A stretch of 64,000 bases of DNA from Candidatus Krumholzibacteriia bacterium (GTDB lineage: Bacteria > Krumholzibacteriota > Krumholzibacteriia > JAJRXK01), in the NCBI GenBank assembly GCA_041484665.1, contig JBGPIA010000003.1:250414-314413 (forward strand). Direction: 5' to 3'. Numbering within the stretch: position 1 is the first letter of the stretch; each line of letters begins with the position of its first letter. The notes beneath the pieces were generated by a model that did not search any database, was not told where the DNA came from, and saw only the letters and a list, made by a program, of their open reading frames with translations. Shown here piece after piece: positions 1 to 10,710 of the stretch. The position numbers and the translations under genes were made by a program.

Positions 1-821
1 AAGAGCGGGTAGTAGCCGTACCGTCCCCACCAGCCCGAGTACCAGCCCCAGTCGTAGTGAACCGACACCTGCGTGCAGGTGTCCACGTACGGGTGGACGG
101 TGCGCCCGTCGTCACCGTGGCACTGGGAGCAAGCGTAGCGCGGGTAGTCGACCCGGCTGTCGACATACACGTGACTCCAGTCGGTAACGATATAGTCGAC
201 GTCCTGCTCGAGGCCGGTGATGGCATAGTTCACGTCGTTCACGGCCAGGAACGGGTCCCCCGCGACTTTGTGTCGGTAGTGCTCCTGCTCATCGGGATCG
301 AACGCGAAGTCGATCGCGAGGTTGCGCAGGTCGAATGGATAGCGGCTGGCGAGCGCCTCGACGTACTCGACACCCTTGCTGAGGCTGGCGTGCAGGCGAT
401 GCGTGGCGCCCGCGGGCGGCAGCGTGTAGGCGTGTCCGCCGTACACGAAGCCGTCGTTGTAGCGGGTGGCCGGCCAGAGCACCTCGGCCACGCCGTCTGC
501 GTCAATGCGGTAGACGACGACGTAGGCGTCGGCATTGGTGCGGAAGTGGAAGCCAATGGCCTCCCCGCGCTGGTAGACTTCGTCCTCACCCTTGTCGTGC
601 CAGACCTGGATGCGCAGATCCCGGTCCGCGCCCGCCTCTGCCGTGCTCGCCTCGGCCTTGCTGGCCGCCGCCTTTGCGGTGTCCTGGTCGGCCGCGCGAT
701 CCTCCCCCTGCACCCAGAGGGCAGCCAGGTCCACGCGCGCAGTGTCCGCCCACGCGAGGGCCGGGACAAACGGGAGGACGGCGAGGAGGACGCCGATCGA
801 AACGTGTAGCTTCGCGCTCAT
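1..821 (-). CDS. Secreted DUF4384-like protein with a CxxCH motif (partial; runs off the left edge)
   Basis: Not in the ORF track (no stop in the window). ATG at 821 overlaps the upstream TGA (ATGA), with a GGAGG RBS. Manual translation: MSAKLHVSIGVLLAVLPFVPALA (signal peptide) ... IQVWHDKGEDEVYQRGEAIGFHFRTNADAYVVVYRIDADGVAEVLWP (DUF4384-like) ... YACSQCH ... then a W/G/Y-rich stretch. Confidence 0.75.
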   Translation of the reverse strand, partial: MSAKLHVSIGVLLAVLPFVPALAWADTARVDLAALWVQGEDRAADQDTAKAAASKAEASTAEAGADRDLRIQVWHDKGEDEVYQRGEAIGFHFRTNADAYVVVYRIDADGVAEVLWPATRYNDGFVYGGHAYTLPPAGATHRLHASLSKGVEYVEALASRYPFDLRNLAIDFAFDPDEQEHYRHKVAGDPFLAVNDVNYAITGLEQDVDYIVTDWSHVYVDSRVDYPRYACSQCHGDDGRTVHPYVDTCTQVSVHYDWGWYSGWWGRYGYYPL

Positions 822-1783
822 CGCGACCCCTCCTCGGGTGTCGGCACGACCTTGCCTCCGCTTGGGACGGACAGCTCGATCAGGCCAGGCACCGGTTGAT
901 ACGCCCAGTAGACGCCGACGTAGTCGGGAGTCCGCTCCACGACGGTGATCTTGGCGTAGTTGTGGTCTCCGGACAGAGCCGGGGATTGGAAGATCTTGAT
1001 CGCGTACGTGTGGTCCACGACCGCTTCGACTTTGCCGGCGATGGACCAGCCGCTCGTGGGCGCCAGGCTCAGGTCGTCGAAGGAGGCCAGGCCGAAGTCC
1101 TGGATCTGCACGCGATCGGGATTTGCGTAAAAGTAGCCGACCCGCTGAGCGCCGACCAACTCGGAGCCGAACCACAGGTCGGTGCTCGACAGCGAGTAGA
1201 GCTGCGCCTGATCCGACAGGCTGCTGAAGTCGTAGCCTGAGAACTGCGCGTTCTGGAGGGACAGGGCCTGGTCGTAGAGCTTGAGCGCGCTCTGCACCTG
1301 CTCGGGGCGCGGCGTGTCCACGACGTAGTCCAAGCTCAGGCCGCTCTCGTTGTTGGTGTGGTCGAACGCGCTCACGGCGTAGTAGTAGTCCACCCCGTTG
1401 GTCAGCCCGGTGTCCGCGTACTCGACGAAATCATCGCCGGGCGCGCTGGTCGCGCCAGGCTGCAGGTGATCGATGGCCGTGATCTCGGCGATCATCGTGA
1501 ATTTGCTGCTGCCGTCGGTGTTGCTGAAGATCCGGTAGCCAGCGAGGTCCGGCTCGCGGTCGGGGATCCAGCGCAAGTAGATCGCATGGTCGCCTGTAAT
1601 GCTGTGCACGCCGCCAGGTATGGCCGGTGGCGTCGCGTCCACGAAACCCTTCTCGTGATCGTTGCAGCCACCCAGGGTCGCGATCGCCAGCGCCCCGAGC
1701 GCGGCGGCGAGCGTCCGTGACCCGGCTGAGACTTTGAGCGTGGCTCTTCGCGAGCCAAAGACACTGCTGCTGTGCCTACGCAT
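818..1783 (-). CDS. Putative lipoprotein with an FN3-like domain
   Basis: ATG at 1783 with a GGAGGAGG RBS; lipobox ATLGG-C; FN3-like PPAIP..LRW..DLAGYRIF..YYYAVSAFD..NES. The ORF-track start at 2239 is over-extended. Confidence 0.8.
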   Translation of the reverse strand: MRRHSSSVFGSRRATLKVSAGSRTLAAALGALAIATLGGCNDHEKGFVDATPPAIPGGVHSITGDHAIYLRWIPDREPDLAGYRIFSNTDGSSKFTMIAEITAIDHLQPGATSAPGDDFVEYADTGLTNGVDYYYAVSAFDHTNNESGLSLDYVVDTPRPEQVQSALKLYDQALSLQNAQFSGYDFSSLSDQAQLYSLSSTDLWFGSELVGAQRVGYFYANPDRVQIQDFGLASFDDLSLAPTSGWSIAGKVEAVVDHTYAIKIFQSPALSGDHNYAKITVVERTPDYVGVYWAYQPVPGLIELSVPSGGKVVPTPEEGSR

Positions 1784-1842
1784 CGTGGACCTCCTCCCTG
1801 CAGGTCTCGTGACCTTCGGCCGACCACCCTGCTGGTGCACAA

Positions 1843-1859
1843 GGCACCGCCCGTGCCAG
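1843..1859 (-). promoter_or_regulatory. Sigma54 (-24/-12) promoter of the lipoprotein-DUF4384 operon
   Basis: Minus strand CTGGCACGGGCGGTGCC has GG-N10-GC and a TGGCACG match, about 60 bp upstream of the ATG. Confidence 0.7.
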
Positions 1860-1919
1860 GCTGCGCCGCGCGGGAGACGGGGCGGGGCACCCTGGGTGCC
1901 AGACCCCCCACGCGATCCC

Positions 1920-1932
1920 CAACTCGTTGAAA
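1920..1932 (-). promoter_or_regulatory. IHF-like binding site
   Basis: TTTCAACGAGTTG differs from WATCAANNNNTTR at one position, lies in an AT-rich patch, and sits upstream of the -24 box. Confidence 0.5.
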
Positions 1933-2137
1933 AGAAGCGAATTGCCAGCACGCGGGGACTGGTGCTGGTGGCGGCGGCGCTGCGGCCGGGGCCCGGCTGT
2001 ACGCGCCCCGCAGCCCCGTACGTGCCCCGCGGGGGACAGCCCCCTGTCCTCTGGCTGGGACAGCCGGGAGCGCGAGCCTGCGCAACCATGGCCGGGGCGG
2101 CGGGGCGCTTCGGTGGTAGCGGTGCGCGGCCGGCCGC

Positions 2138-2170
2138 AGAAGCAAAGGGCCGCCCCGGAGGAGGCGGCCC
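2138..2170 (-). terminator. Intrinsic terminator ending the putative ncRNA
   Basis: Minus strand GGGCCGCCTC-CTCC-GGGGCGGCCC followed by TTTGCTTCT. Confidence 0.7.
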
Positions 2171-2522
2171 TCGCACAAATGAGAGAGGGTGCGCAGTACC
2201 GGGAACCGCCCCAGTCGTGCCGCTCCTGGATCTCGCCATTCCAAGAGGGCGAAAGCGGCTCCTATGTTGGTGTCAGCGCACCCTTCTCGCCTGATGCGGA
2301 GGATTTCGAAGGATGGTCAGGAACGGATGCCTTCCTTCACTCCACCGCGCTCAACCCTGTGACCCCACCTCACAAGACAAGCGTGGTAGACCCAACTTGG
2401 AAGGGTCTCCTCATACAGCCGGTTAACCGAGAGGAGCCGCTCCCTTCCATCCTTCGAAACTCTCGAGCCCTCACGGGCTGCTTTGGACGACCGGACCACG
2501 ACTGCCAGTAGTGCCCGGCGCT
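2138..2522 (-). ncRNA. Putative novel, large structured ncRNA (~385 nt) transcribed by sigma54
   Basis: Bounded by a sigma54 promoter (predicted +1 about 2522) and a terminator. Helices seen: 5'/3' closing stem 2497-2518 with 2199-2219; perfect 13-bp helix 2447-2459 with 2304-2316; 10-bp helix 2432-2441 with 2254-2263; 9-bp helix 2276-2284 with 2186-2194; a GNRA hairpin AGCCC-GTGA-GGGCT; other local hairpins. No credible ORF. Confidence 0.7.
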
Positions 2523-2532
2523 GGATCTCCAG

Positions 2533-2549
2533 TGCAGCCAACGTGCCAG
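2533..2549 (-). promoter_or_regulatory. Sigma54 (-24/-12) promoter of the putative ncRNA
   Basis: Minus strand CTGGCACGTTGGCTGCA is close to the consensus YTGGCACGNNNNTTGCW. Confidence 0.8.
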
Positions 2550-2586
2550 GGAGGTCGTCCGCTAGCAGGTTCGTAAGTGCAATATG

Positions 2587-2599
2587 TTTCAACAAGTTC
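2587..2599 (+). promoter_or_regulatory. IHF-like binding site
   Basis: TTTCAACAAGTTC (two mismatches to WATCAANNNNTTR) in an AT-rich patch between the enhancer-like sites and the -24 box. Confidence 0.45.
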
Positions 2600-2649
2600 T
2601 GGAGGCGGACGCCGACCGGCGATCGTCTGCCGACGGGCGCCCCGGAGCG

Positions 2650-2668
2650 CTAGCAAACACCTTGATAG
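2650..2668. promoter_or_regulatory. Putative enhancer (UAS) site 1 for a bacterial enhancer-binding protein
   Basis: CTAGCAAACACCTTGATAG, an imperfect palindrome (CTAKCAA-N5-TTGMTAG), repeated at 2721-2739. Confidence 0.65.
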
Positions 2669-2720
2669 GGCGCTCATCGGGGGAACCAGGCAGCCCCTTG
2701 CTGCGGAAGGGGTTATCGGC

Positions 2721-2739
2721 CTAGCAAATGATTTGATAG
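2721..2739. promoter_or_regulatory. Putative enhancer (UAS) site 2
   Basis: CTAGCAAATGATTTGATAG has arms identical to site 1 and lies 71 bp away. Confidence 0.65.
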
Positions 2740-2751
2740 CGGGCGGTCGTG

Positions 2752-5700
2752 CTATGCCGGCGCGTGTAGACCGTAAAGCTTGATCTTCTGGAGCAGCGTG
2801 GGATAGCTGATGCACAGCCTTCGCGAGACCTCAGCGCGGTTCCAGCCGGTGATGGCGAGGGCCTCCGCCAGGACTCTACGTTCCAGTTCGGCCACCTGAG
2901 CGCGCAGCGGCAAGGGCCCGCCGGCTTCGCTGGACGCGCCGTCCTCCGCCTCGCTGCCGAGCGCGTCCTCGCGCAGCCGCGGCGGGAGGTGCACCATGCG
3001 CAGCTGCAGCTCGCCCGCGGCCAGGATCACCGTGCGCCTGATCGCCTTCTCCAGCTCACGCACATTGCCGGGCCACGCGTACGCGCGCAGGCACTCGGCG
3101 AAGCTGCGCGTCATCGTCGGCAGCGGGCGGCCGAGCTCGGCGCAGGTCTGCGCGATGAAGTGCTCGGCCAAGAGCAGCACGTCCTCCGGACGCTCGCGCA
3201 GTGGCGGCACGTGCACTGGGAAATCGAGCATGCGGTAGTACAGGTCCTCCAGGAATTCGTCGCGCTCGACCATCGCGCGGAGGTCCTGCTTGCTCGCGCA
3301 CAGGATCCGCACGTCGACGGCCCGCTCGACCGTGCCACCGACCGGCCGCACCAGCTTGGTGTCGAGGAAGTGGAGGAGCTTGGCCTGCATCGGCAGGCTC
3401 ATCTTTCCCACCTCGTCGAGGAACAGCGTACCGCGCTCGGTGCCCACGATCAGGCCCGGTTTGTCCCTGTCCGCTCCAGTGAACGCACCGCGCACGTAGC
3501 CGAAGAGCTCGCTTTCCAGCAGCGTGTCCGGGATCGCTGCGCAGTTGACCGTGAGGAACGTGCGGTCGCGGCGCGCGCTGAGCTCGTGTACGGCGCGGGC
3601 GAACAGGCCCTTGCCGGTGCCCGTCTCGCCGGTGAACAGCACGGTGTACGGCGAGTCGGCCACCTTTGCGCAGAGCTCGAGAACTTCGAGGATCTTGTCG
3701 CTGTGGGTGAGGATGTCCTTGAAGGCCTCTTCGGAGCGGGGAGACGGCGCCGACGCCGCGGGAGCGTCCAGGGCCGTAGCGGTGTCCAGCAGCGCGGGCC
3801 GCAGCAGATTCACGTAGGTCGAGGCCACGGCCAGCGCCTCGGAGCTCAGCGGCTGCGGCTCCCCGGTGCGCTCAAAGTAGACGATCCCGCGCAGGCCTTC
3901 CCCGGCGCGCAGCGGGAAGGCCACGGCCACCGAGACCTCGCCGATGTCCACGCCCAGAGCCTCACGCCACGCGGGCTCTGCCTGCGGGCGCGTCCAGACG
4001 CGCGGCCCGTCACACGCCGCGCAGCTGGGGAGCTGGGACAGCACGTGGGCCGCGGTGCGCCGCGCGCGGGCGCGGGCCATGCGCGACGCAGCCACCAGCT
4101 GCACGCGTCCTCCGGGTCCGCGCAGTGCCACCAGGCCGCGCTCGCCGCCCATACGCTCCATGACCGCCGAGAGCATGGCCGAGGCGCTCTGGGCCAGCCC
4201 TTCGCCTCCCTGCAGCAGCGGATCGCCCAGGTTGGCCAGCTCCTGGTAACGGGTAGTGGCGACGCGTGCATGGGAGGACATGGCCGCCTCGATGCGAGCG
4301 CGCAGCTCCTCGATGTCACCGGTGACGCCCTCGACGCCCAGGCAGCTCATGCGCTCCACCTCGAACAACGCGAGCAGCGCCTCGTCGTGGTTTCCCAGCT
4401 CGAGCTCCACGCGAGCCAGCGCGAGCTGCAACCGGCACGGCGCAGTGTCGGCGTCGGCGGCCGCCAGATCGACCGCTTCGCGCAACAACCCGCGCGCCGC
4501 GAGCAGCTGCGTCCGCCCGCCGTGCTGCACGTGGAGATCCGCCAGCAACTCCAGCGTCACGCCGATCTCGACCGGCAGCCGGTAGGCGCGGAAGCGGTTG
4601 AGGGCCTCTTGCAGAGCGGAGCCCGCCTCCTCCACGCGCCCGCAGGCCAGCAGCGCCTGGCCGCGCACACGCTCGAGAAACCCCAGCTCGTACTGCTCGC
4701 CGCAACCGCGGCCCACCGCGGTTCCTGCGGCGGCCAACTGGGTGGCGGCCAGGGCATCGCCGCGCTGCAGGGCCAGTTGCGCCTGGCGCCGCAACACCTC
4801 GGCCAGCACGTCGTTTCCGCCGGAGATCTCGCGCGCGCGGGTCTCGGCGATGCCATAGTTGAGCTCCGCCTCGTCGAAGCGGCCCCGGGCCGCCATCAGA
4901 TCGCCGAGGAACTCATCGGCCAGGGCGGTCTCGCGCAGCGAGCCATTACGCTCGGCGAGAACGCGCGCTTCGAGCAGATTGCGCTCCGCGTCGGCGAACT
5001 TGCCTTCCTCGATCTGGAGCTGCGCGTGGAGCAGGCGCAGCTTGGTGATCAGCCCCTGGTCGCCCAGGCTGCGCGCCATCTCACTGCCGCGCAGCACGCA
5101 AGCCAGCGCGTCGGCGCGCCGGCCCATCTTGCGGTAGAGCACCGCCTTGTTGAGGTGCAACGCGCCCAGCTCGTGCGCGGAGCCTACCGCGCGCATCAGC
5201 TCCTCGGCCCGGTCGAAGAGCTGGATCGCGCGCGACCAGCGGCAGGCGTTCTTGGCCAGCAGCGCGAGGTTGCTCAACACCTGGGCCTGGCCGGTCACGT
5301 GCTCGATGCGCCGGTAGGTGGCCAGCGCGTCCTGGTAGAACTCCTCCGCCTTCTCGGCCCGGCCCAGGCGGAACCAGCAGCCCCCGAGAATGGTCTGGGC
5401 GTTGCCCACCTCGACGTGCGCATCGGTCGTCGCGAGTGTGGCGAACGCGTCGCGCGCAAGCTCGGCGGCTTCCTCGTAACGCGCCATGCGGTAGAGCAGC
5501 AGGGCGCGACGCACCTGGACGGGGGCCTGCAGCTGTGGCGTGGAGCCGGCCAGCAGGTCCGCCGCAGCGTCGAGCTGCGCCGCGCATTCCTCGAGGCGGC
5601 CCTGCTGCAGCAGGCAGTCAGCGAGCTTGCGGTGGAGCACGGCAAGGGGCTCCACGCTGATGCCAGCCGGTCCGGATTCCGGCACGAGGCCGCGCAGCGC

Positions 5701-5856
5701 AGCGCGGTAGTACTCGATCGCAGAGGAGTAAGCGGCAGCGCGATAGTGGAGGTCCCCGACCTCTTCCAGTCGGGGCGCACCGGAACCCTCGGGCTTACGC
5801 CTCGGCGTCTCCGGAGAGGACCACGGCCTCTCGTCTCCGTCACGGAACTCGTCCAT
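2752..5856 (-). CDS. TPR-repeat / GAF-like / sigma54-interacting AAA+ / Fis-HTH transcriptional activator
   Basis: Long N-terminal TPR array; GAF-like segment (AFPLRAGEGLRGIVYFER); Walker A GETGTGK; ESELFG..GAFTGA; Walker B TLFLDEV; WPGNVREL; C-terminal HTH. Start placed at MDEFRD (5856). Confidence 0.9.
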   Translation of the reverse strand: MDEFRDGDERPWSSPETPRRKPEGSGAPRLEEVGDLHYRAAAYSSAIEYYRAALRGLVPESGPAGISVEPLAVLHRKLADCLLQQGRLEECAAQLDAAADLLAGSTPQLQAPVQVRRALLLYRMARYEEAAELARDAFATLATTDAHVEVGNAQTILGGCWFRLGRAEKAEEFYQDALATYRRIEHVTGQAQVLSNLALLAKNACRWSRAIQLFDRAEELMRAVGSAHELGALHLNKAVLYRKMGRRADALACVLRGSEMARSLGDQGLITKLRLLHAQLQIEEGKFADAERNLLEARVLAERNGSLRETALADEFLGDLMAARGRFDEAELNYGIAETRAREISGGNDVLAEVLRRQAQLALQRGDALAATQLAAAGTAVGRGCGEQYELGFLERVRGQALLACGRVEEAGSALQEALNRFRAYRLPVEIGVTLELLADLHVQHGGRTQLLAARGLLREAVDLAAADADTAPCRLQLALARVELELGNHDEALLALFEVERMSCLGVEGVTGDIEELRARIEAAMSSHARVATTRYQELANLGDPLLQGGEGLAQSASAMLSAVMERMGGERGLVALRGPGGRVQLVAASRMARARARRTAAHVLSQLPSCAACDGPRVWTRPQAEPAWREALGVDIGEVSVAVAFPLRAGEGLRGIVYFERTGEPQPLSSEALAVASTYVNLLRPALLDTATALDAPAASAPSPRSEEAFKDILTHSDKILEVLELCAKVADSPYTVLFTGETGTGKGLFARAVHELSARRDRTFLTVNCAAIPDTLLESELFGYVRGAFTGADRDKPGLIVGTERGTLFLDEVGKMSLPMQAKLLHFLDTKLVRPVGGTVERAVDVRILCASKQDLRAMVERDEFLEDLYYRMLDFPVHVPPLRERPEDVLLLAEHFIAQTCAELGRPLPTMTRSFAECLRAYAWPGNVRELEKAIRRTVILAAGELQLRMVHLPPRLREDALGSEAEDGASSEAGGPLPLRAQVAELERRVLAEALAITGWNRAEVSRRLCISYPTLLQKIKLYGLHAPA

Positions 5857-5969
5857 CAGGCATCCCTTGGGCGAGAAGTTCTGACAAGGTTGCCGACATC
5901 GACCGGCTCGATCGTGCGCTGTGGCCGCGCAGCCCCCCACGACTGCGGGGAGCGCGAGGCCCCTTCCTC

Positions 5970-6314
5970 CTATCGGACGAGCAGCAAGGTGAAGCCGCGC
6001 TCGTACAGGAATCCCATCAGGCGGATGATCCGCGAGGGCGGCGGAAGCATCGCCGCGGTGGCGCGCACCGTCGGGCCCCTCACGTTGTTGCCACCCAGGA
6101 TGTCATCGGGATCGCCATCCAGGCTCGAGCCGGGCCCAGGCCCGCCGGGATCCCCACCGGCCGGAGGCGTCCAGGAAGACAGGGTCGCGGTAGCGCCCGA
6201 GCCGGTACTGGGCGGGCGCACGCCCACCGACTTGGCCAGCGCAGCAGGCTGAGCCCACAGGCTCACGACGACCGCGAACGCCACGGCAAGGAGCAACGCG
6301 TGGCTGGTCTTCAT
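5970..6314 (-). CDS. Small secreted Gly/Pro/Ser-rich protein (candidate signalling pre-propeptide, 114 aa)
   Basis: ATG at 6314 with a GAGGAG RBS; Sec signal MKTSHALLLAVAFAVVVSLWAQPAALA; GGDPGG and DGDPDD motifs; hydrophobic and basic C-terminus. Confidence 0.75.
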   Translation of the reverse strand: MKTSHALLLAVAFAVVVSLWAQPAALAKSVGVRPPSTGSGATATLSSWTPPAGGDPGGPGPGSSLDGDPDDILGGNNVRGPTVRATAAMLPPPSRIIRLMGFLYERGFTLLLVR

Positions 6315-6433
6315 CGTGATCCATCTCCTCAATCTCGGGTGGTTCCGGACCCGCGCGGGGACGCGCCCCGGATCCGTGGACCCGGAACCGCTGGGTAGAC
6401 CGTCCCCCGGGTGGGACGGTGGCTACGCCTAAA

Positions 6434-6463
6434 ACGATACGAACCCCACCCCTCCGCTGTCAA
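6434..6463 (-). promoter_or_regulatory. Sigma70-type promoter for the pre-peptide and TPR-activator unit
   Basis: Minus strand TTGACA-N18-TATCGT. Confidence 0.55.
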
Positions 6464-6542
6464 ACCCCAGCAATCGGCCGGATGTCTCGTGCGGCCGGCC
6501 CGGCGCGGCCCGCCAGGGCGGGGTCCGCCCCGGGCGGGGCGT

Positions 6543-7919
6543 CTAGCCCCCTTCGGAGGAGGTCCGCAACCCGTACTTCTGGATCTTCTTGTAGAGATTG
6601 CTGCGCTGCATCTGGATCTCGTCGGCCGTCCGGCTCACGTTGTAACCGAACTCGCGCAGCTTCTGCTGTAGGTAGGCGGCCTCGCTGGCCGCCTTGAATT
6701 CCTGGAAGGTCGGAGCAGCCAGGAACTCGGCCGCTCCGCGGTCGGCCTCGCGCCCTCCCAGCGCTGCTGGGAGATCGGACGCCGCGATGGTGTCCGCAGC
6801 CACCACGATCGCCAGCCGCTCCGCCAGGTTGCGCAGCTCCCGGACGTTGCCCGGCCACGCGTAGCGGGCCAGGCGCTCGATCACGCCCGGGCCGATCTGC
6901 TTGGGCGGCTGCTTCATCTCGCGGGCAACCGCGTCGAGGAAGTGGGCGAACAGCGGCTCGATGTCGTCGACGCGCTCGCGCAGCGGCGGCAGGTGGATCT
7001 GGATCACGTTGAGGCGGAAGTAGAGGTCCTGGCGAAAGGCAAGGTTGGCGTCCTGCAGATCGCGATTGGTGGCGGCGATTACCCGCACGTCCACGCTGAC
7101 CTGGTCCTGCCCACCGACCCGCTCGAAGCGGCCGTCCTCCAGCGCCCGGAGCACCTTGGCCTGGGCCGCCACGCTCATGTCCCCGACCTCGTCCAGGAAG
7201 AGGGTGCCACCATGGGCCCGCTCGAACTTGCCGCGGCGGCGCGCCAGCGCTCCCGTGAACGCGCCGCGCTCGTGGCCGAACAGCTCGCTCTCGATCAGCT
7301 CGTCGGGAATCGCCGCGCAGTTCACCTCCACGAAGGGCTGGTCGGCGCGCCGGCTGTGGGCGTGGATCGCCCGCGCCACCACCTCCTTGCCCGTGCCGTT
7401 CTCGCCGGTGATCAGCACCCGCGCCGGGGTGGGCGCCACCTTCTCCGCCAGCTCCCGGATGCGCCCGATGGCCGCGCTGCGGCCGATCAGCTCGCCGCGC
7501 CGGCCGGTCTCCTCCGCCAGCTCGCGGTTGACGGTGCGCAAGCGTCCGTGCTCCACGGCGTTCTGGAGACGGACGAGCAGCTCCTCCTTCTTGAACGGCT
7601 TCTCGAGGAAGTCGTAGGCACCGCGCTTGATCGCCTCGACGGCGTTGGCCACGGCGTCGTGGCCGGAGATGACCACGGTGGGCACTTCGAGGCCCTCGGC
7701 CTTCAGGCCGGCCATGACCTCGAACCCGTCCATGCCGGGCATCTTGACGTCCAGCAGCAACGCGTCGATGCCGCCGCGCCGCAGCTGTTCGAGGGCGCTG
7801 GGCCCGTCCACCGCGTCGGCGACCTCGTAGCCCTCGTAACGCAGGATCGCGCCGACGCTCTGGCGGATCGCCGCCTCGTCGTCGGCGATGAGCACGCGTG
7901 CCCGGGCCACGGCCGTCAC
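6543..7919 (-). CDS. NtrC/NtrX-family sigma54-dependent response regulator
   Basis: Receiver domain (ADDE, LLDVKMP, FLEKP), GENGTGKE, GAFTGA, WPGNVREL and C-terminal HTH. Confidence 0.92.
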   Translation of the reverse strand: MTAVARARVLIADDEAAIRQSVGAILRYEGYEVADAVDGPSALEQLRRGGIDALLLDVKMPGMDGFEVMAGLKAEGLEVPTVVISGHDAVANAVEAIKRGAYDFLEKPFKKEELLVRLQNAVEHGRLRTVNRELAEETGRRGELIGRSAAIGRIRELAEKVAPTPARVLITGENGTGKEVVARAIHAHSRRADQPFVEVNCAAIPDELIESELFGHERGAFTGALARRRGKFERAHGGTLFLDEVGDMSVAAQAKVLRALEDGRFERVGGQDQVSVDVRVIAATNRDLQDANLAFRQDLYFRLNVIQIHLPPLRERVDDIEPLFAHFLDAVAREMKQPPKQIGPGVIERLARYAWPGNVRELRNLAERLAIVVAADTIAASDLPAALGGREADRGAAEFLAAPTFQEFKAASEAAYLQQKLREFGYNVSRTADEIQMQRSNLYKKIQKYGLRTSSEGG

Positions 7920-7944
7920 GAGCCGCCCGCTCCGCCGCGCGGTG

Positions 7945-8445
7945 TCACAGCAGAAAGTCCTCCATGCTCGCCGGCGAAGGCATTGGCTGCGCCGGCGACA
8001 GCTGGGACGGCGTCATGGGCGGCGCCTTGGGCGGGCCGGGCGCCTCCCCCGCGCGCTGCGGCGGAAGGCCCAGCGGCGGAAGGCCCAGTGAGTGACGCAG
8101 CACGAAGACGAGCTCGGCCGCCGGTCCGCCCGCTGCAGGAGCGGCCCAGCGGTAGAAACGGTGGCGGCCCCTGGCCTCGACGCTGACCAGACCGGCATCG
8201 CGCAGGACGGCGAGGTGGTGCGACGCGCGGGGCTGGCCCAGTCGCAGCCGGGCGCAGATCTCGTGGACCGCCATCGGCTCGCGCAATAACGACAGGATGC
8301 GCAAGCGTACGGGATCGGCGGCCGCGGACAGCTGCTCCAACAGCCGGCGCTCGTCGGGCGAGAGCGGCGCAGCTATACTTGGGTCCGCCTGGAGCTGACC
8401 CGACTCGGCCTGCGCGAGCGCCAGAGGTTCCGTTTGCGTCTGCAT
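7945..8445 (-). CDS. ArsR/SmtB-family winged-HTH regulator with a Pro-rich tail
   Basis: ADPVRLRILSLL..MAVHEI..GQPRASHHLAVLRDAGLV..GRHRFY. The start codon is uncertain. Confidence 0.75.
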   Translation of the reverse strand: MQTQTEPLALAQAESGQLQADPSIAAPLSPDERRLLEQLSAAADPVRLRILSLLREPMAVHEICARLRLGQPRASHHLAVLRDAGLVSVEARGRHRFYRWAAPAAGGPAAELVFVLRHSLGLPPLGLPPQRAGEAPGPPKAPPMTPSQLSPAQPMPSPASMEDFLL

Positions 8446-8597
8446 GACCTGCCGATGCACTCTGATGCTCACTGGGGTTCGCGGCGCCACATGCGCAAGA
8501 CCGAGCGCAGGCAGCGCGCCCCACGTTCGCGCAGCGCGCCTTTGCATGTCAAGCGCCGCCGGATCCGGCGCCGGCCCGGCCGGCCCCCACGACAACG

Positions 8598-9656
8598 ATG
8601 TCCGTACGCACCCTGCACGATCATTCACCCGCCGAGCTGGAGCAGCTCGTGCGCGGCCTCGGCGAGCCATCCTATCGCGGGCGGCAGCTGGCGCGCGGGT
8701 TGTTCGCTCGCGCGGTCGCCGACCTGGCCGAGCTCACCGACCTGCCCGTGGCTCTGCGATCGGAGCTGGCCAGCCGCCACGGGCTCACCATCCTGCGCGC
8801 AGCGGAGCGCCAGCATGCCGCCGACGGCTCGGTGAAGTATCTGTTCGAGCTGCACGACGGCGCCCGGATCGAGGCGGTGGCGATCGCGCGCGATGCAGGC
8901 GAGCAGACCCTGTGCCTCTCCAGCCAGGTCGGCTGCCGCATGGCCTGCGTGTTCTGCGCCACGGCGCGCATGGGCCTGCTGCGCAATCTGGCCGCCGGGG
9001 AAATCGTGGCCCAGGTGCTCGAGCTGCGGCGCCGCCACCCCACCGACCGGCATCCCAACCTGGTGTTCATGGGCATGGGTGAGCCCTTGGACAACTTCGA
9101 TGAGCTGGCCCGCGCGCTGGCCATCCTCACCGATCCCGGCGCCGTCGGGCTGGGGGCGCGCCACATCACCGTGAGCACGTCGGGTGTGGTCGCTGGAATC
9201 CGCCGGCTGCAGGAGCTGGGTAAGCCCTACGGGCTGGCGATCTCGGTGACGACCGCGCACCCGGGCGAGCGTCGCAACCTGATGCCCGTGGCCGGCGCGG
9301 TCTCGCTGGAAGAGCTGCTGGCCGCCGGCGCGGCCTACGGCCGGGCGACGCGGCGCAAGGTCACGTTGGAATGCGCCCTCATCGCTGGGGTCAATGACCG
9401 TGAGGAGGACGCGCGGAGGCTGCTGCGTCTGGCCAGCAGCGGCCCATTCAAGGTCAACCTCATCCCGCTCAATCCCATCGAGGGCTACGCGGGCGGTCGC
9501 CCACAGCCGGCCGCCGTCGACCGCTTCGTGCGGCTCTTCTGGGACGCCGGAATCGTCGCAACGGTGCGCGAAAGCGCCGGGCGCGAGGTGGGTGCGGCCT
9601 GCGGCCAACTGGTGCAACGGCGCACGCGCCGGGGCGCTCCGCCCGCCACCACCTGA
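8598..9656 (+). CDS. rlmN: Dual-specificity RNA methyltransferase RlmN (radical SAM)
   Basis: CLSSQVGCRMACVFC, FMGMGEP, NLIPLN and AACGQL motifs. Confidence 0.92.
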   Translation: MSVRTLHDHSPAELEQLVRGLGEPSYRGRQLARGLFARAVADLAELTDLPVALRSELASRHGLTILRAAERQHAADGSVKYLFELHDGARIEAVAIARDAGEQTLCLSSQVGCRMACVFCATARMGLLRNLAAGEIVAQVLELRRRHPTDRHPNLVFMGMGEPLDNFDELARALAILTDPGAVGLGARHITVSTSGVVAGIRRLQELGKPYGLAISVTTAHPGERRNLMPVAGAVSLEELLAAGAAYGRATRRKVTLECALIAGVNDREEDARRLLRLASSGPFKVNLIPLNPIEGYAGGRPQPAAVDRFVRLFWDAGIVATVRESAGREVGAACGQLVQRRTRRGAPPATT

Positions 9657-9690
9657 CCCGCTCACCCGCGCGGGTGCGCTTGCGGCGGCT

Positions 9691-10710
9691 CTACTTGAGC
9701 AACAGCATGGAGCCAACGCGGCATTCGCCGCCGGCCCAGACGCGGAAGAGATAGCGGCCCGAGGCCACCGGCTGTCCGCGCGCATCGGTGCCGTCCCAGC
9801 GCGCGGCGATCTGCGGTGCCGCCGGCATCGGCGGCAGACGCATGACCAGGCGCCCGCGCAGATCCAGCACCTCGATCTGCACGCTCGTGCTGGTGGTGAC
9901 CAGATCGTCGCGCAGCTGGGCGCGGATCGTCGTGCTCGGATTGAACGGATTGGGAAAGTTGGCGACCCACTGGATGCGCGGCGCCGCCTGGAAGCGGCCC
10001 AGCAGCACGTCCGCCATGAACGCGCGCAAGCCGGCGACGCCGGCCGGAGCGGGCAGATCGGGATTCTCGATGGTTCCGCTGTAGGTCGCCAGCGGGCCAC
10101 CGAACAGCGCCCGAAAGTCCTCGGCGAAGACCTCGGCCGGCCGGTCGCGGTGGATGGCCCGCTCGTTGTAGCGGGTGCCATCGGTCAGTCCGCGCAGCGC
10201 GAGGTAGCGATCCCATCCGGCCTCGCCCGGCGCCGGCAGGCGCACGTGCTGCACCACGTGCCCCAGCTCGTGGACGACGGTGTACGCCGCGACCCGCGGA
10301 GAGATCTCGCCCACCGCCGCGGCGAGGAAGATCTCGTGGCCCGCCGTGAAGCTCGCGCCCTGCAGCTGCGGGAGCCCCGGCAGGCAGTAGATCGTAACGG
10401 CCAGATCGGGTCCTGGAAGTTCGGCCACTTCGGCGAGCGCCGCCGCGACCAGCTCCGCGGTGAAGGGGTGGAAGGTGCCGTCCCACGCGGGATTGGTGAT
10501 GGCGGCCGCGCTCGGATCGACGACCACGCCCAGCGGCTGCCCCGCGTCGCTGATGAAGCGAAGAGCGCCGGGCGCGTCGGCGGGAGCGCCGTGCCCGCTG
10601 ACCCACTCCGCGCTGCGGACGTCGACTTGAACCGATGCCCGCGCGGTCGAAGGTGCCGCGGAGCACAGCAGGGCGCAAGCGAGCAGTACGGGTGTGATGA
10701 CGGTGCGCAC
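9691..10710 (-). CDS. Secreted zinc metallopeptidase-like protein with a C-terminal FlgD-Ig/sorting-type domain
   Basis: Signal peptide; HELGH plus EVFAE; C-terminal NFPNPFNPSTTI..DLRGRLV..WDGTDARGQPVASGRYLFRV. Confidence 0.8.
   Translation of the reverse strand: MRTVITPVLLACALLCSAAPSTARASVQVDVRSAEWVSGHGAPADAPGALRFISDAGQPLGVVVDPSAAAITNPAWDGTFHPFTAELVAAALAEVAELPGPDLAVTIYCLPGLPQLQGASFTAGHEIFLAAAVGEISPRVAAYTVVHELGHVVQHVRLPAPGEAGWDRYLALRGLTDGTRYNERAIHRDRPAEVFAEDFRALFGGPLATYSGTIENPDLPAPAGVAGLRAFMADVLLGRFQAAPRIQWVANFPNPFNPSTTIRAQLRDDLVTTSTSVQIEVLDLRGRLVMRLPPMPAAPQIAARWDGTDARGQPVASGRYLFRVWAGGECRVGSMLLLK

Follow-up and report, generated by a model that had tools for sequence, protein, structure and literature searches.

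A probable two-circuit sigma-54 locus with a large structured RNA in Candidatus Krumholzibacteriota

Known relatives of the circuit and the conserved locus

In Vibrio the enhancer-binding protein LuxO acts with sigma-54 to drive the Qrr non-coding RNA genes, and in Enterobacteria GlrR (QseF) and sigma-54 drive one small RNA gene, that of GlmY, by way of upstream activating sequences (UAS), a site for integration host factor (IHF) and a -24/-12 promoter. A comparable combination occurs at the left end of the DNA analyzed here, a 64,000-nucleotide stretch (the window, G000:C3:250414-314413) from the 5.45-Mb assembly of a Candidatus Krumholzibacteriia bacterium, which comprises 54 contigs and is 93.65% complete. 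This end of the window is probably, although by no means certainly, a conserved locus of Candidatus Krumholzibacteriota with two sigma-54 circuits, one of which would have a structured RNA of ~385 nucleotides (nt) as its output. The RNA family itself is new, and the circuit is a variant of the established scheme of a regulatory RNA under the control of a sigma-54 activator.

The Qrr RNAs feed back on luxO mRNA, which resembles the pairing suggested below between the RNA and the mRNA of its own activator. They are ~100 nt in length and dependent on Hfq, however, whereas the RNA of this locus has ~385 nt and at least 10 helices, and no Hfq gene was found in the 93.65% complete genome. LuxO is also a phosphorelay response regulator, whereas the activator here has a sensor region composed of tetratricopeptide repeats (TPR) and a GAF-like domain. 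GlmY acts by protein binding and not by base pairing, a mode of action that might also apply to an RNA as highly folded as this one. The GlmY system nonetheless involves a different RNA, a two-component sensor and a different phylum, and GlmY has no sequence or structure match to the RNA described here. The receptors of the RRNPP group (Rap, NprR, PlcR, PrgX and AimR) are likewise cytoplasmic TPR proteins encoded beside a small secreted protein. The activator of this locus differs from them in lacking an XRE-type helix-turn-helix (HTH) or Rap fold, in having an AAA+/sigma-54 output, in its partner of 96-145 residues and in its occurrence in a diderm phylum. In PspF-PspA and NifA-NifL, too, the activator has a small or neighboring companion gene whose product could set its activity. 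The neighbor in this locus is of no known family and carries a signal peptide, and its interaction with the activator is a putative one.

Few bacterial RNAs are both large and highly structured, and the majority have turned out to be ribozymes, scaffolds of ribonucleoproteins or master regulators. OLE, the raiA motif, ROOL, GOLLD and HEARO belong to the same size class as the present RNA and share with it many covarying helices, invariant unpaired nucleotides and a restriction to particular lineages, but the RNA matches none of their Rfam families. To our knowledge, and as far as the accessible parts of the literature extend, none of the five has a dedicated sigma-54 promoter and activator. 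The same partial literature yielded no description of this RNA or of a TPR sigma-54 activator of this type. The locus offers an unusually clear handle on the biology of its RNA, namely a dedicated sigma-54 activator whose sensor is composite, together with a conserved partner protein, defined enhancers and a testable pairing with the mRNA of the activator itself, and it adds a TPR-GAF input module and an output RNA of ~400 nt to the repertoire of sigma-54 circuits. Because every part could be reassembled in a heterologous host, the system can be tested without culturing the organism.

The described elements of the locus all lie on the minus strand. Their conserved order begins with an NtrC-like regulator, a small protein with a GDPDD motif, the TPR-GAF-AAA+-HTH activator, two palindromes and an A+T-rich block and continues with a -24/-12 promoter, the ~385-nt unit, a second type of palindrome, a second -24/-12 promoter, a lipoprotein and a DUF4384 protein. 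An earlier, sequence-only reading of this DNA had listed these features; all of them were found in their places, nearly all are kept in relatives within the phylum, and the synteny on which that reading turned is preserved, parts and order alike, across 20 related loci compared in detail, a repetition that we judge to be beyond chance. Searches with tblastn in the 20 fetched loci located the NtrC-like gene in every one and the lipoprotein and DUF4384 genes in 19 each, the exception being L059; an FG-GAP protein is encoded downstream in 19 of 20 and rlmN upstream in 18 of 20. The activator and lipoprotein genes are 810-1039 nt apart in 20 of 21 loci; in L054 the distance is 3122 nt. Near full-length orthologues of the activator, with 35-53% identity, are present in 34 of 41 related genomes. 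In two of the other seven the activator is cut by a contig end, and the remaining five, all of family f6, have a match to the AAA+-HTH part alone. Almost all records matched by the TPR region of the activator are metagenome-assembled genomes of Candidatus Krumholzibacteriota or Krumholzibacteriia, and activators homologous to it are listed in public data under generic names or none. The local G+C content is ~0.63-0.78 and falls to 0.60-0.63 across positions 2250-2850.

The explanation that we prefer, in which as a whole we have somewhat better than even confidence, has two circuits. In the first, a sigma70-type promoter would express the small secreted protein of the GDPDD family together with the cytoplasmic TPR/weak-GAF activator. 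On receiving its signal, the activator would bind two palindromes (UAS1) just downstream of its own gene and, helped by a bend at the A+T-rich block, would contact sigma-54 RNA polymerase at the promoter P1. Transcription from P1 would give a terminated non-coding RNA of ~385 nt that acts in trans and folds into a multi-helix structure with the invariant loops GGUGGGG and GGCGAGA; the second loop may pair with UCUCGCC near the ribosome-binding site of the activator mRNA and so feed back on activator synthesis. In the second circuit, the NtrC-like regulator encoded upstream would bind a different palindrome (UAS2) and drive, from the promoter P2, an envelope operon for the lipoprotein, the DUF4384 protein, the FG-GAP protein and a PorV-like protein.

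Several loci depart from the arrangement in the window. In family f3 (L054 = G021 and L058 = G031), the NtrC-like and small-protein genes are set apart by 2.6-2.7 kb of other DNA, and L054 has a further 2 kb between the RNA and the lipoprotein operon, with the small protein, activator and RNA remaining together. A gene for an ArsR-type HTH protein upstream of the NtrC-like gene (window 7945-8670, minus strand) was seen in family f1 alone, in 8 loci. The divergent rlmN gene occupies 8598-9656 of the window on the plus strand and is kept in 18 of 20 loci.

The structured RNA

The ~385-nt unit, which is predicted to run from ~2523 to 2138, is a real structured RNA by the pattern of sequence change in its relatives. 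This agrees with the sequence-only reading, which had called it a structured non-coding unit; its helices covary and it contains no consistent reading frame. Within a family-level alignment of nine sequences, RNAalifold gave 81 pairs, 37 of them with compensatory changes. The conserved blocks are parted by covarying helices and comprise hairpin A, with the invariant loop GGUGGGG (2363-2369) on a stem that covaries (helix 7) in 8 of 9 pairs; hairpin B (2221-2249), which follows ~120-140 nt on and has the invariant loop GGCGAGA at 2231-2237; and a long-range helix enclosing hairpin A. The sequence of this helix shifts freely among lineages (UCGGAGGACGG/CCGUCCUCCGA, UUUGGGGAGGGAU/AUCCCUCCCCGAA and AAGCGGAGAGGUACU/GGUAUCUCUCCGUUU). 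A long-range helix of at least 7 pairs was detected in 47 of 47 sequences scanned, although ~6 of these matches are non-homologous and the homologous helix was re-derived separately.

The central domain (2302-2460), on which model R1 was built, consists of the long-range helix enclosing six further helices and has 50 pairs. In an alignment of 27 full-length sense matches to R1 (E <2e-5), 90.5% of the cells are paired and 43 of the 50 pairs have changed on both sides; the observed values are reached by 0 of 500 shuffles, and slid controls give 41-54%. Since this alignment was fitted to the model structure and the sequences are kin, the covariation figures lean high and the shuffle counts overstate the case. 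The model-based alignment was used because MAFFT with RNAalifold returned only 11 pairs for the 27 f1/f2 sequences, a result of misalignment. Hairpin B was evaluated in an ungapped, model-free alignment of 40 distinct sequences, in which 82% of the cells are paired, 10 of 10 pairs have changed on both sides and the covariation score is reached by 0 of 500 shuffles. In the low-GC lineages the 3' end of the RNA forms a three-way junction whose outer stem is followed by a run of U; here 94% of cells are paired and 14 of 31 pairs have changed on both sides.

The model R1 has one match in the genome of the window and one match in each of 37 of the 151 genomes sampled from the phylum, including 8 of 8 in family f1 and 28 of 61 in f2. 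Model R2, which represents the low-GC 3' domain, matches 41 of the 151 genomes (f4, 26/33; f7, 5/6; f8, 2/9; f9, 1/1; f2, 7/61), with two matches in each of three genomes (G038, G044 and G070). Under strict filters the two models together cover at least 72 of the 151 genomes. This union is a lower bound, because the filters become stricter above 40 genomes and the visibly related variants in L054, L057 and L058 were missed. As a point against the preferred explanation, the models fail to match families f3, f5 and f6 and half of f2. In keeping with it, an RNA match was found in 0 of 10 genomes of f6, the family whose activators match in the AAA+ part alone. Sufficient DNA was available downstream of the activator in 47 loci, of which 40 have both exact loop motifs, four have variants, two have motif A alone and one has neither. 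The RNA is a core, single-copy feature in much of this uncultured phylum and so probably governs something central, perhaps the remodeling of the envelope or surface.

The presumed intrinsic terminator (2138-2171) consists of a GC hairpin at 2146-2171 and the U-rich tail UUUGCUUCU. The hairpin is conserved with covariation (columns 368-398 of the family alignment), and orthologues have runs of 6-9 U, which are clear in those with lower G+C. Against this assignment, a simple terminator scan of positions 1-8000 lists no terminator, this hairpin and tail included. The sequencing runs that hold this DNA comprise 24 DNA and 0 RNA runs, so the transcript, with its start at ~2522 and its end at ~2138, is a prediction.

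A terminator-like hairpin that could be conditional, in a unit located upstream of the lipoprotein/DUF4384 operon and on the same strand, would also be expected of a cis-acting leader such as an attenuator or riboswitch. In all loci, however, ~280 nt, UAS2 and the operon's own -24/-12 promoter lie between the hairpin and the lipoprotein gene. In L054 the 2-kb insertion splits the RNA from the operon and leaves it next to the activator, which speaks against a leader function. In two lineages, moreover, the stem of the terminator is the closing helix of the conserved three-way junction and is therefore part of the fold. We consider a leader very unlikely and a separate RNA the better description of the unit.

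The window copy, which is GC-rich, contains stretches of up to 123 codons free of stops that might suggest a small protein, and the presence of CsrA in the genome, with a mild enrichment of GGA in the RNA (mean 10.4 versus 7.3 expected), might suggest a CsrB/Rsm-like sponge that titrates CsrA. Taken together these readings are extremely improbable. No consistent open reading frame (ORF) is shared among the orthologues; the longest open stretch switches frame and strand from one to another and is reduced to 49-63 codons in the low-GC ones, and the sense-strand ORFs begin inside the promoter. The coding reading was rejected for want of a shared frame. The sponge reading was rejected in turn, given that the conserved loops GGUGGGG and GGCGAGA contain no GGA and that the csrA gene adjoins the gene for FliW, the usual protein antagonist of CsrA. 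The FliW-CsrA pair (G000:C2:69762-70565; L163:973-1776) has FlgL-like, FliS-like and FliD-like neighbors, and its position within a flagellar gene cluster indicates that the organism is probably flagellated.

A search of window positions 1-10000 against Rfam 15, whose families include Qrr, GlmY and 6S RNA, returned only an irrelevant match on the opposite strand (E 0.8), and seven orthologous loci (54.5 kb) gave no Rfam match at E values up to 1. A third, nearly invariant hairpin loop, GGA[C/U]AUCCCCUCCG[G/U]UGCU, was observed in low-GC loci (L085:6581-6687 and 19 others) and has no counterpart in the lineage of the window. It holds the sequence CCUCC, which resembles an anti-Shine-Dalgarno sequence, and is complementary to GGUGGGG save for one U-U; it may form a tertiary contact or a site for Shine-Dalgarno (SD) binding.

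Regulators, enhancers and promoters

The activator gene (2752-5856) encodes a protein of 1034 residues in which Pfam identifies TPR_12 and TPR_MalT repeats, Sigma54_activat (PF00158, E 3.1e-60), AAA_lid_14 and HTH_8 (2.8e-07), an architecture close to the TPR-GAF-like-AAA+-HTH order read from the sequence earlier. The translation carries GAFTGA and the Walker A sequence GETGTGKG. Its middle region is a weak GAF domain; GAF_2 scores 23.1 bits in the window copy, below the cut-off of 28.6, and 30.1 bits in the orthologue P0003, which passes. An AAA+ domain with GAFTGA, a C-terminal Fis-type HTH, UAS elements with a -24/-12 promoter and an rpoN gene in the genome (Sigma54_DBD, 219.6 bits, G000:C3:144432-144902) together indicate that the protein would act as a bacterial enhancer-binding protein. 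The proposal of a sigma-54 activator that switches on a large non-coding RNA is supported by both the protein architecture and the RNA beside it. A second TPR activator, 30% identical, was observed at G038:C17:33633-36515 and suggests that the systems are duplicated in some cases.

The two enhancer-like palindromes that had been noted downstream of the activator gene are 19-bp copies of CTATCAA-N4-TTTGCTAG. UAS1a (2721-2739) lies ~188-190 bp and UAS1b (2650-2668) ~119 bp upstream of P1, and the pair is present upstream of P1 in all loci at these fixed distances (~-188 and ~-119), with a half-site that is TATCAA, TGTAAA or TATAAA according to lineage. Between UAS1b and P1, an A+T-rich block at 2575-2598 is a candidate bend site, as the description of this block as IHF-like had implied; 16 of 21 loci have a 24-nt window with at least 66% A+T between -110 and -20, and genes of the HU/IHF family are present in the genome. 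P1 itself, TGGCACGTTGGCTGCA (TGGCAC-N5-CTGCA), is at 2533-2548, where a -24/-12 promoter for the RNA had been proposed. A scan found a -24/-12 site 200-330 nt past the activator stop codon in 19 of 21 loci, and the other two have the variants CGGCAT and CGGTAC. In the low-GC loci L087, L095, L103, L105, L118 and L124 the -12 element of P1 is TTGAT and not TTGC (TGGAAC-N5-TTGAT), which is unusual for sigma-54.

The second circuit goes beyond the sequence-only reading, in that the locus has two activators and two distinct enhancer palindromes. The NtrC-like protein (6543-7919) is a response-regulator sigma-54 activator with Response_reg (8e-30), Sigma54_activat (5.1e-70) and HTH_8 domains, and no histidine kinase gene adjoins it at the locus. 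UAS2, TGTCC-N8-GGACA at 2045-2062, is situated just past the RNA terminator, with a weaker repeat at 2021-2038. Upstream of P2 it occurs with two or fewer changes in 17 of 21 loci and is nearly invariant through the phylum. P2, the -24/-12 promoter TGGCACGGGCGGTGCC of the envelope operon, was found at 1843-1858, as had been read; an additional -24/-12-like palindromic site, TGGCACCCAGGGTGCC, is present at 1886-1901, 43 nt upstream of P2.

The recognition helix of the TPR activator, ISYP[TNS][LM]L[QKSRN]K, varies among lineages as UAS1 does, whereas that of the NtrC-like protein, MQRSNLYKK, is identical in 21 of 21 sequences, in parallel with the invariance of UAS2. From this we infer that the TPR activator uses UAS1 and P1 and that the NtrC-like protein uses UAS2 and P2; the second promoter thus most likely belongs to the NtrC-like regulator and not to the TPR activator. 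Weighing on the other side, parallel conservation is the whole of the argument for this putative assignment. When the 5.45-Mb genome was searched for the window form of UAS1 with two or fewer changes, only these two sites and one weak match were found, and the RNA gene therefore appears to be the sole target of the TPR activator in the genome.

The small secreted protein, feedback pairing and the envelope operon

The gene for the small protein (5970-6314 with the stop codon, 5973-6314 without) encodes 114 residues with a signal-peptide-like N terminus, the motif GDPDD-ILGGN and an amphipathic C-terminal helix. It is preceded by the sigma70-type promoter TTGACA-18-TATCGT, which is located at 6463-6434, had been listed in the sequence-only reading, is the sole such site in positions 1-8000 and serves the small-protein/activator unit; TTGACA-N17/18-TAnnnT is present upstream of the small gene in 19 of 19 loci viewed. 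An ORF for the small protein lies between the NtrC-like and activator genes in 21 of 21 loci, with a shared layout of a signal-peptide-like start, a stretch rich in Gly, Ser, Pro and Asp, a motif of the type G-D-[P/A]-x-D and a hydrophobic or amphipathic C-terminal helix. The GD core is invariant within the motif GDP/A-D-D/E. The ORF is frameshifted in L042, where the gene is split across two overlapping frames (L042:2988-3301) by a frameshift or an assembly error. A profile built from 18 members had a match immediately 5' of the activator gene in 52 of 65 further loci and, among 1.84 billion proteins, recovered 96 representatives, of which 95 have 96-145 residues and one is a fragment of 55; there were no fusions. 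No Pfam family was found for the small protein, and a comparison with the Protein Atlas gave only unnamed clusters (0.88, under the lead level of 0.9). By its conserved position and sequence, the small protein is a conserved partner gene of the activator. A palindrome similar to UAS2, CGTCCCACCCGGGGGACG, is present at 6401-6418, just downstream of the -10 element of the sigma70 promoter, and could be an operator for the activator that binds UAS2. It is not clearly conserved, and comparable palindromes of relatives differ in sequence and place.

The secreted GDPDD pre-peptide postulated by the sequence-only reading was borne out in its gene, signal-peptide-like start and motif, but the product belongs to a family of proteins of 96-145 residues and is not a short pro-peptide. 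In the corresponding model, the small protein would be processed to a peptide that is taken back up by the cell and binds the TPR domain, as in RRNPP systems, switching on the RNA. The position of the small gene immediately ahead of the activator gene in 52 of 65 loci, the conserved sigma70 promoter, the signal-peptide-like N terminus and the invariant GD core are all compatible with this model. TPR domains bind peptides in general, and the three SBP_bac_5 (OppA-like) genes in the genome would permit import. The similarity of the TPR region is generic, however, and not specific to RRNPP receptors. In searches of PDB sequences with the TPR-region profile, kinesin-light-chain-like repeats (1e-15) and AfsR (1e-10) scored ahead of the Rap proteins (~1e-6, ranging from 1e-6 to 6e-5) and MalT (7e-5). 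The order of domains and the effector, an AAA+ domain with a Fis-type HTH, are likewise unlike those of RRNPP receptors, so that the receptor class assigned earlier was not upheld. Furthermore, the length of the partner and its conserved C-terminal amphipathic helix are unlike short pro-peptides, and the GAF-like domain of the activator could take a small-molecule signal instead. A predicted complex of the TPR region (residues 1-650) with the small protein (residues 28-114), both supplied with alignments, scored 0.02, a value that gives no verdict for or against contact. The accessible portion of the literature contained no report of a link between RRNPP receptors and sigma-54 activators. Peptide sensing of this kind is an unlikely explanation.

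Control of the activator by the small protein without re-import is somewhat less doubtful, though still on the unlikely side when it is taken together with the alternative in which the small protein is no more than an envelope protein expressed alongside the activator, with a metabolite sensed by the GAF domain. In the first variant, unexported precursor or its C-terminal helix would bind the TPR domain in the cytoplasm and report on secretion or envelope stress in the manner of PspA-PspF or NifL-NifA, in both of which control of an activator by an adjacent partner protein is established. The conserved bicistronic arrangement, the weak GAF domain and the envelope proteins encoded by the neighboring P2 operon fit these readings, which leave the role of the GDPDD motif unexplained and in which any contact is putative. 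A fuller scheme is improbable, more so than peptide sensing taken by itself: a TPR-GAF sigma-54 activator that senses a secreted protein or peptide, whose sole output is a large RNA with loop feedback and a second function (for example, protein binding or catalysis), coordinated with the NtrC envelope operon. If true, it would be an unprecedented signaling device, and one in a diderm, uncultured phylum.

The feedback step of the preferred two-circuit explanation concerns the translation-initiation region of the activator (5854-5876), in which UCUCGCC (5870-5876) precedes the SD sequence AAGGGA (5863-5868) and the AUG codon (5854-5856). When complements of both invariant loops were sought in the 5' regions of the locus, the one consistent match was UCUCGCC, complementary to the loop GGCGAGA and 1 nt 5' of the activator SD sequence in the window. 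The core CTCGCC lies 1-2 nt 5' of the SD sequence in 30 of 65 loci, which comprise every locus of f1, f2 or f3 type, against a background of 0.23 per 220 nt. The 20-nt block CCTTCTCGCCCAAGGGATGCC around it shows little or no change in 8 of 9 family loci, with flanks that differ and proteins that are merely ~50% identical; the window copy is more diverged. Short duplexes between the loop and the initiation region have energies of -12 to -16 kcal/mol in the 27 A/B loci, with a median z of -2.9.

Several observations weigh against this pairing. The duplex result for the A/B loci is circular, because the 27 loci were picked by the motif itself. The 18 low-GC loci have a median z of -1.46, with only 5 of 18 beating 95% of shuffles; four low-GC lineages carry UUUGCCAC in place of the motif, and in 10 of the 18 loci an alternative is offered by a small hairpin with the loop UUCGCCG ~31 nt upstream. 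An unconstrained search for duplexes between the whole RNA and the initiation region gave no enrichment over shuffles, with loop B involved in 11 of 34 loci, but it produced long, meaningless duplexes and was judged uninformative. Both putative partners are nearly invariant, and there is consequently little true covariation in the pairing. For GGUGGGG, a search of the 5' regions of four genes, those for the small protein, the activator, the lipoprotein and the NtrC-like protein, gave no conserved partner site. Finally, a multi-domain fold of 385 nt exceeds the needs of a 7-nt seed, and the main function of the RNA may therefore lie elsewhere. We regard feedback on activator translation through the loop GGCGAGA as a tentative proposal, possible rather than probable.

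The envelope operon begins with the gene for a lipoprotein (818-1783) that has the lipobox LGGC and no Pfam family, followed by that for a DUF4384 protein of 606 residues (1-821, continuing past the window start; E 7.9e-15) with the sequence CSQCH. Both proteins, and the CxxCH motif, were present as had been read. Past the DUF4384 gene, the operon continues with an FG-GAP protein of ~1300 residues and then a PorV/UPF0164-like protein. The CxxCH sequence (window ~120-170) occurs in the context PRYxCxQCH in 15 of 20 DUF4384 orthologues (f1/f2) and is absent in five deeper ones; this motif may be a haem-c or metal site.

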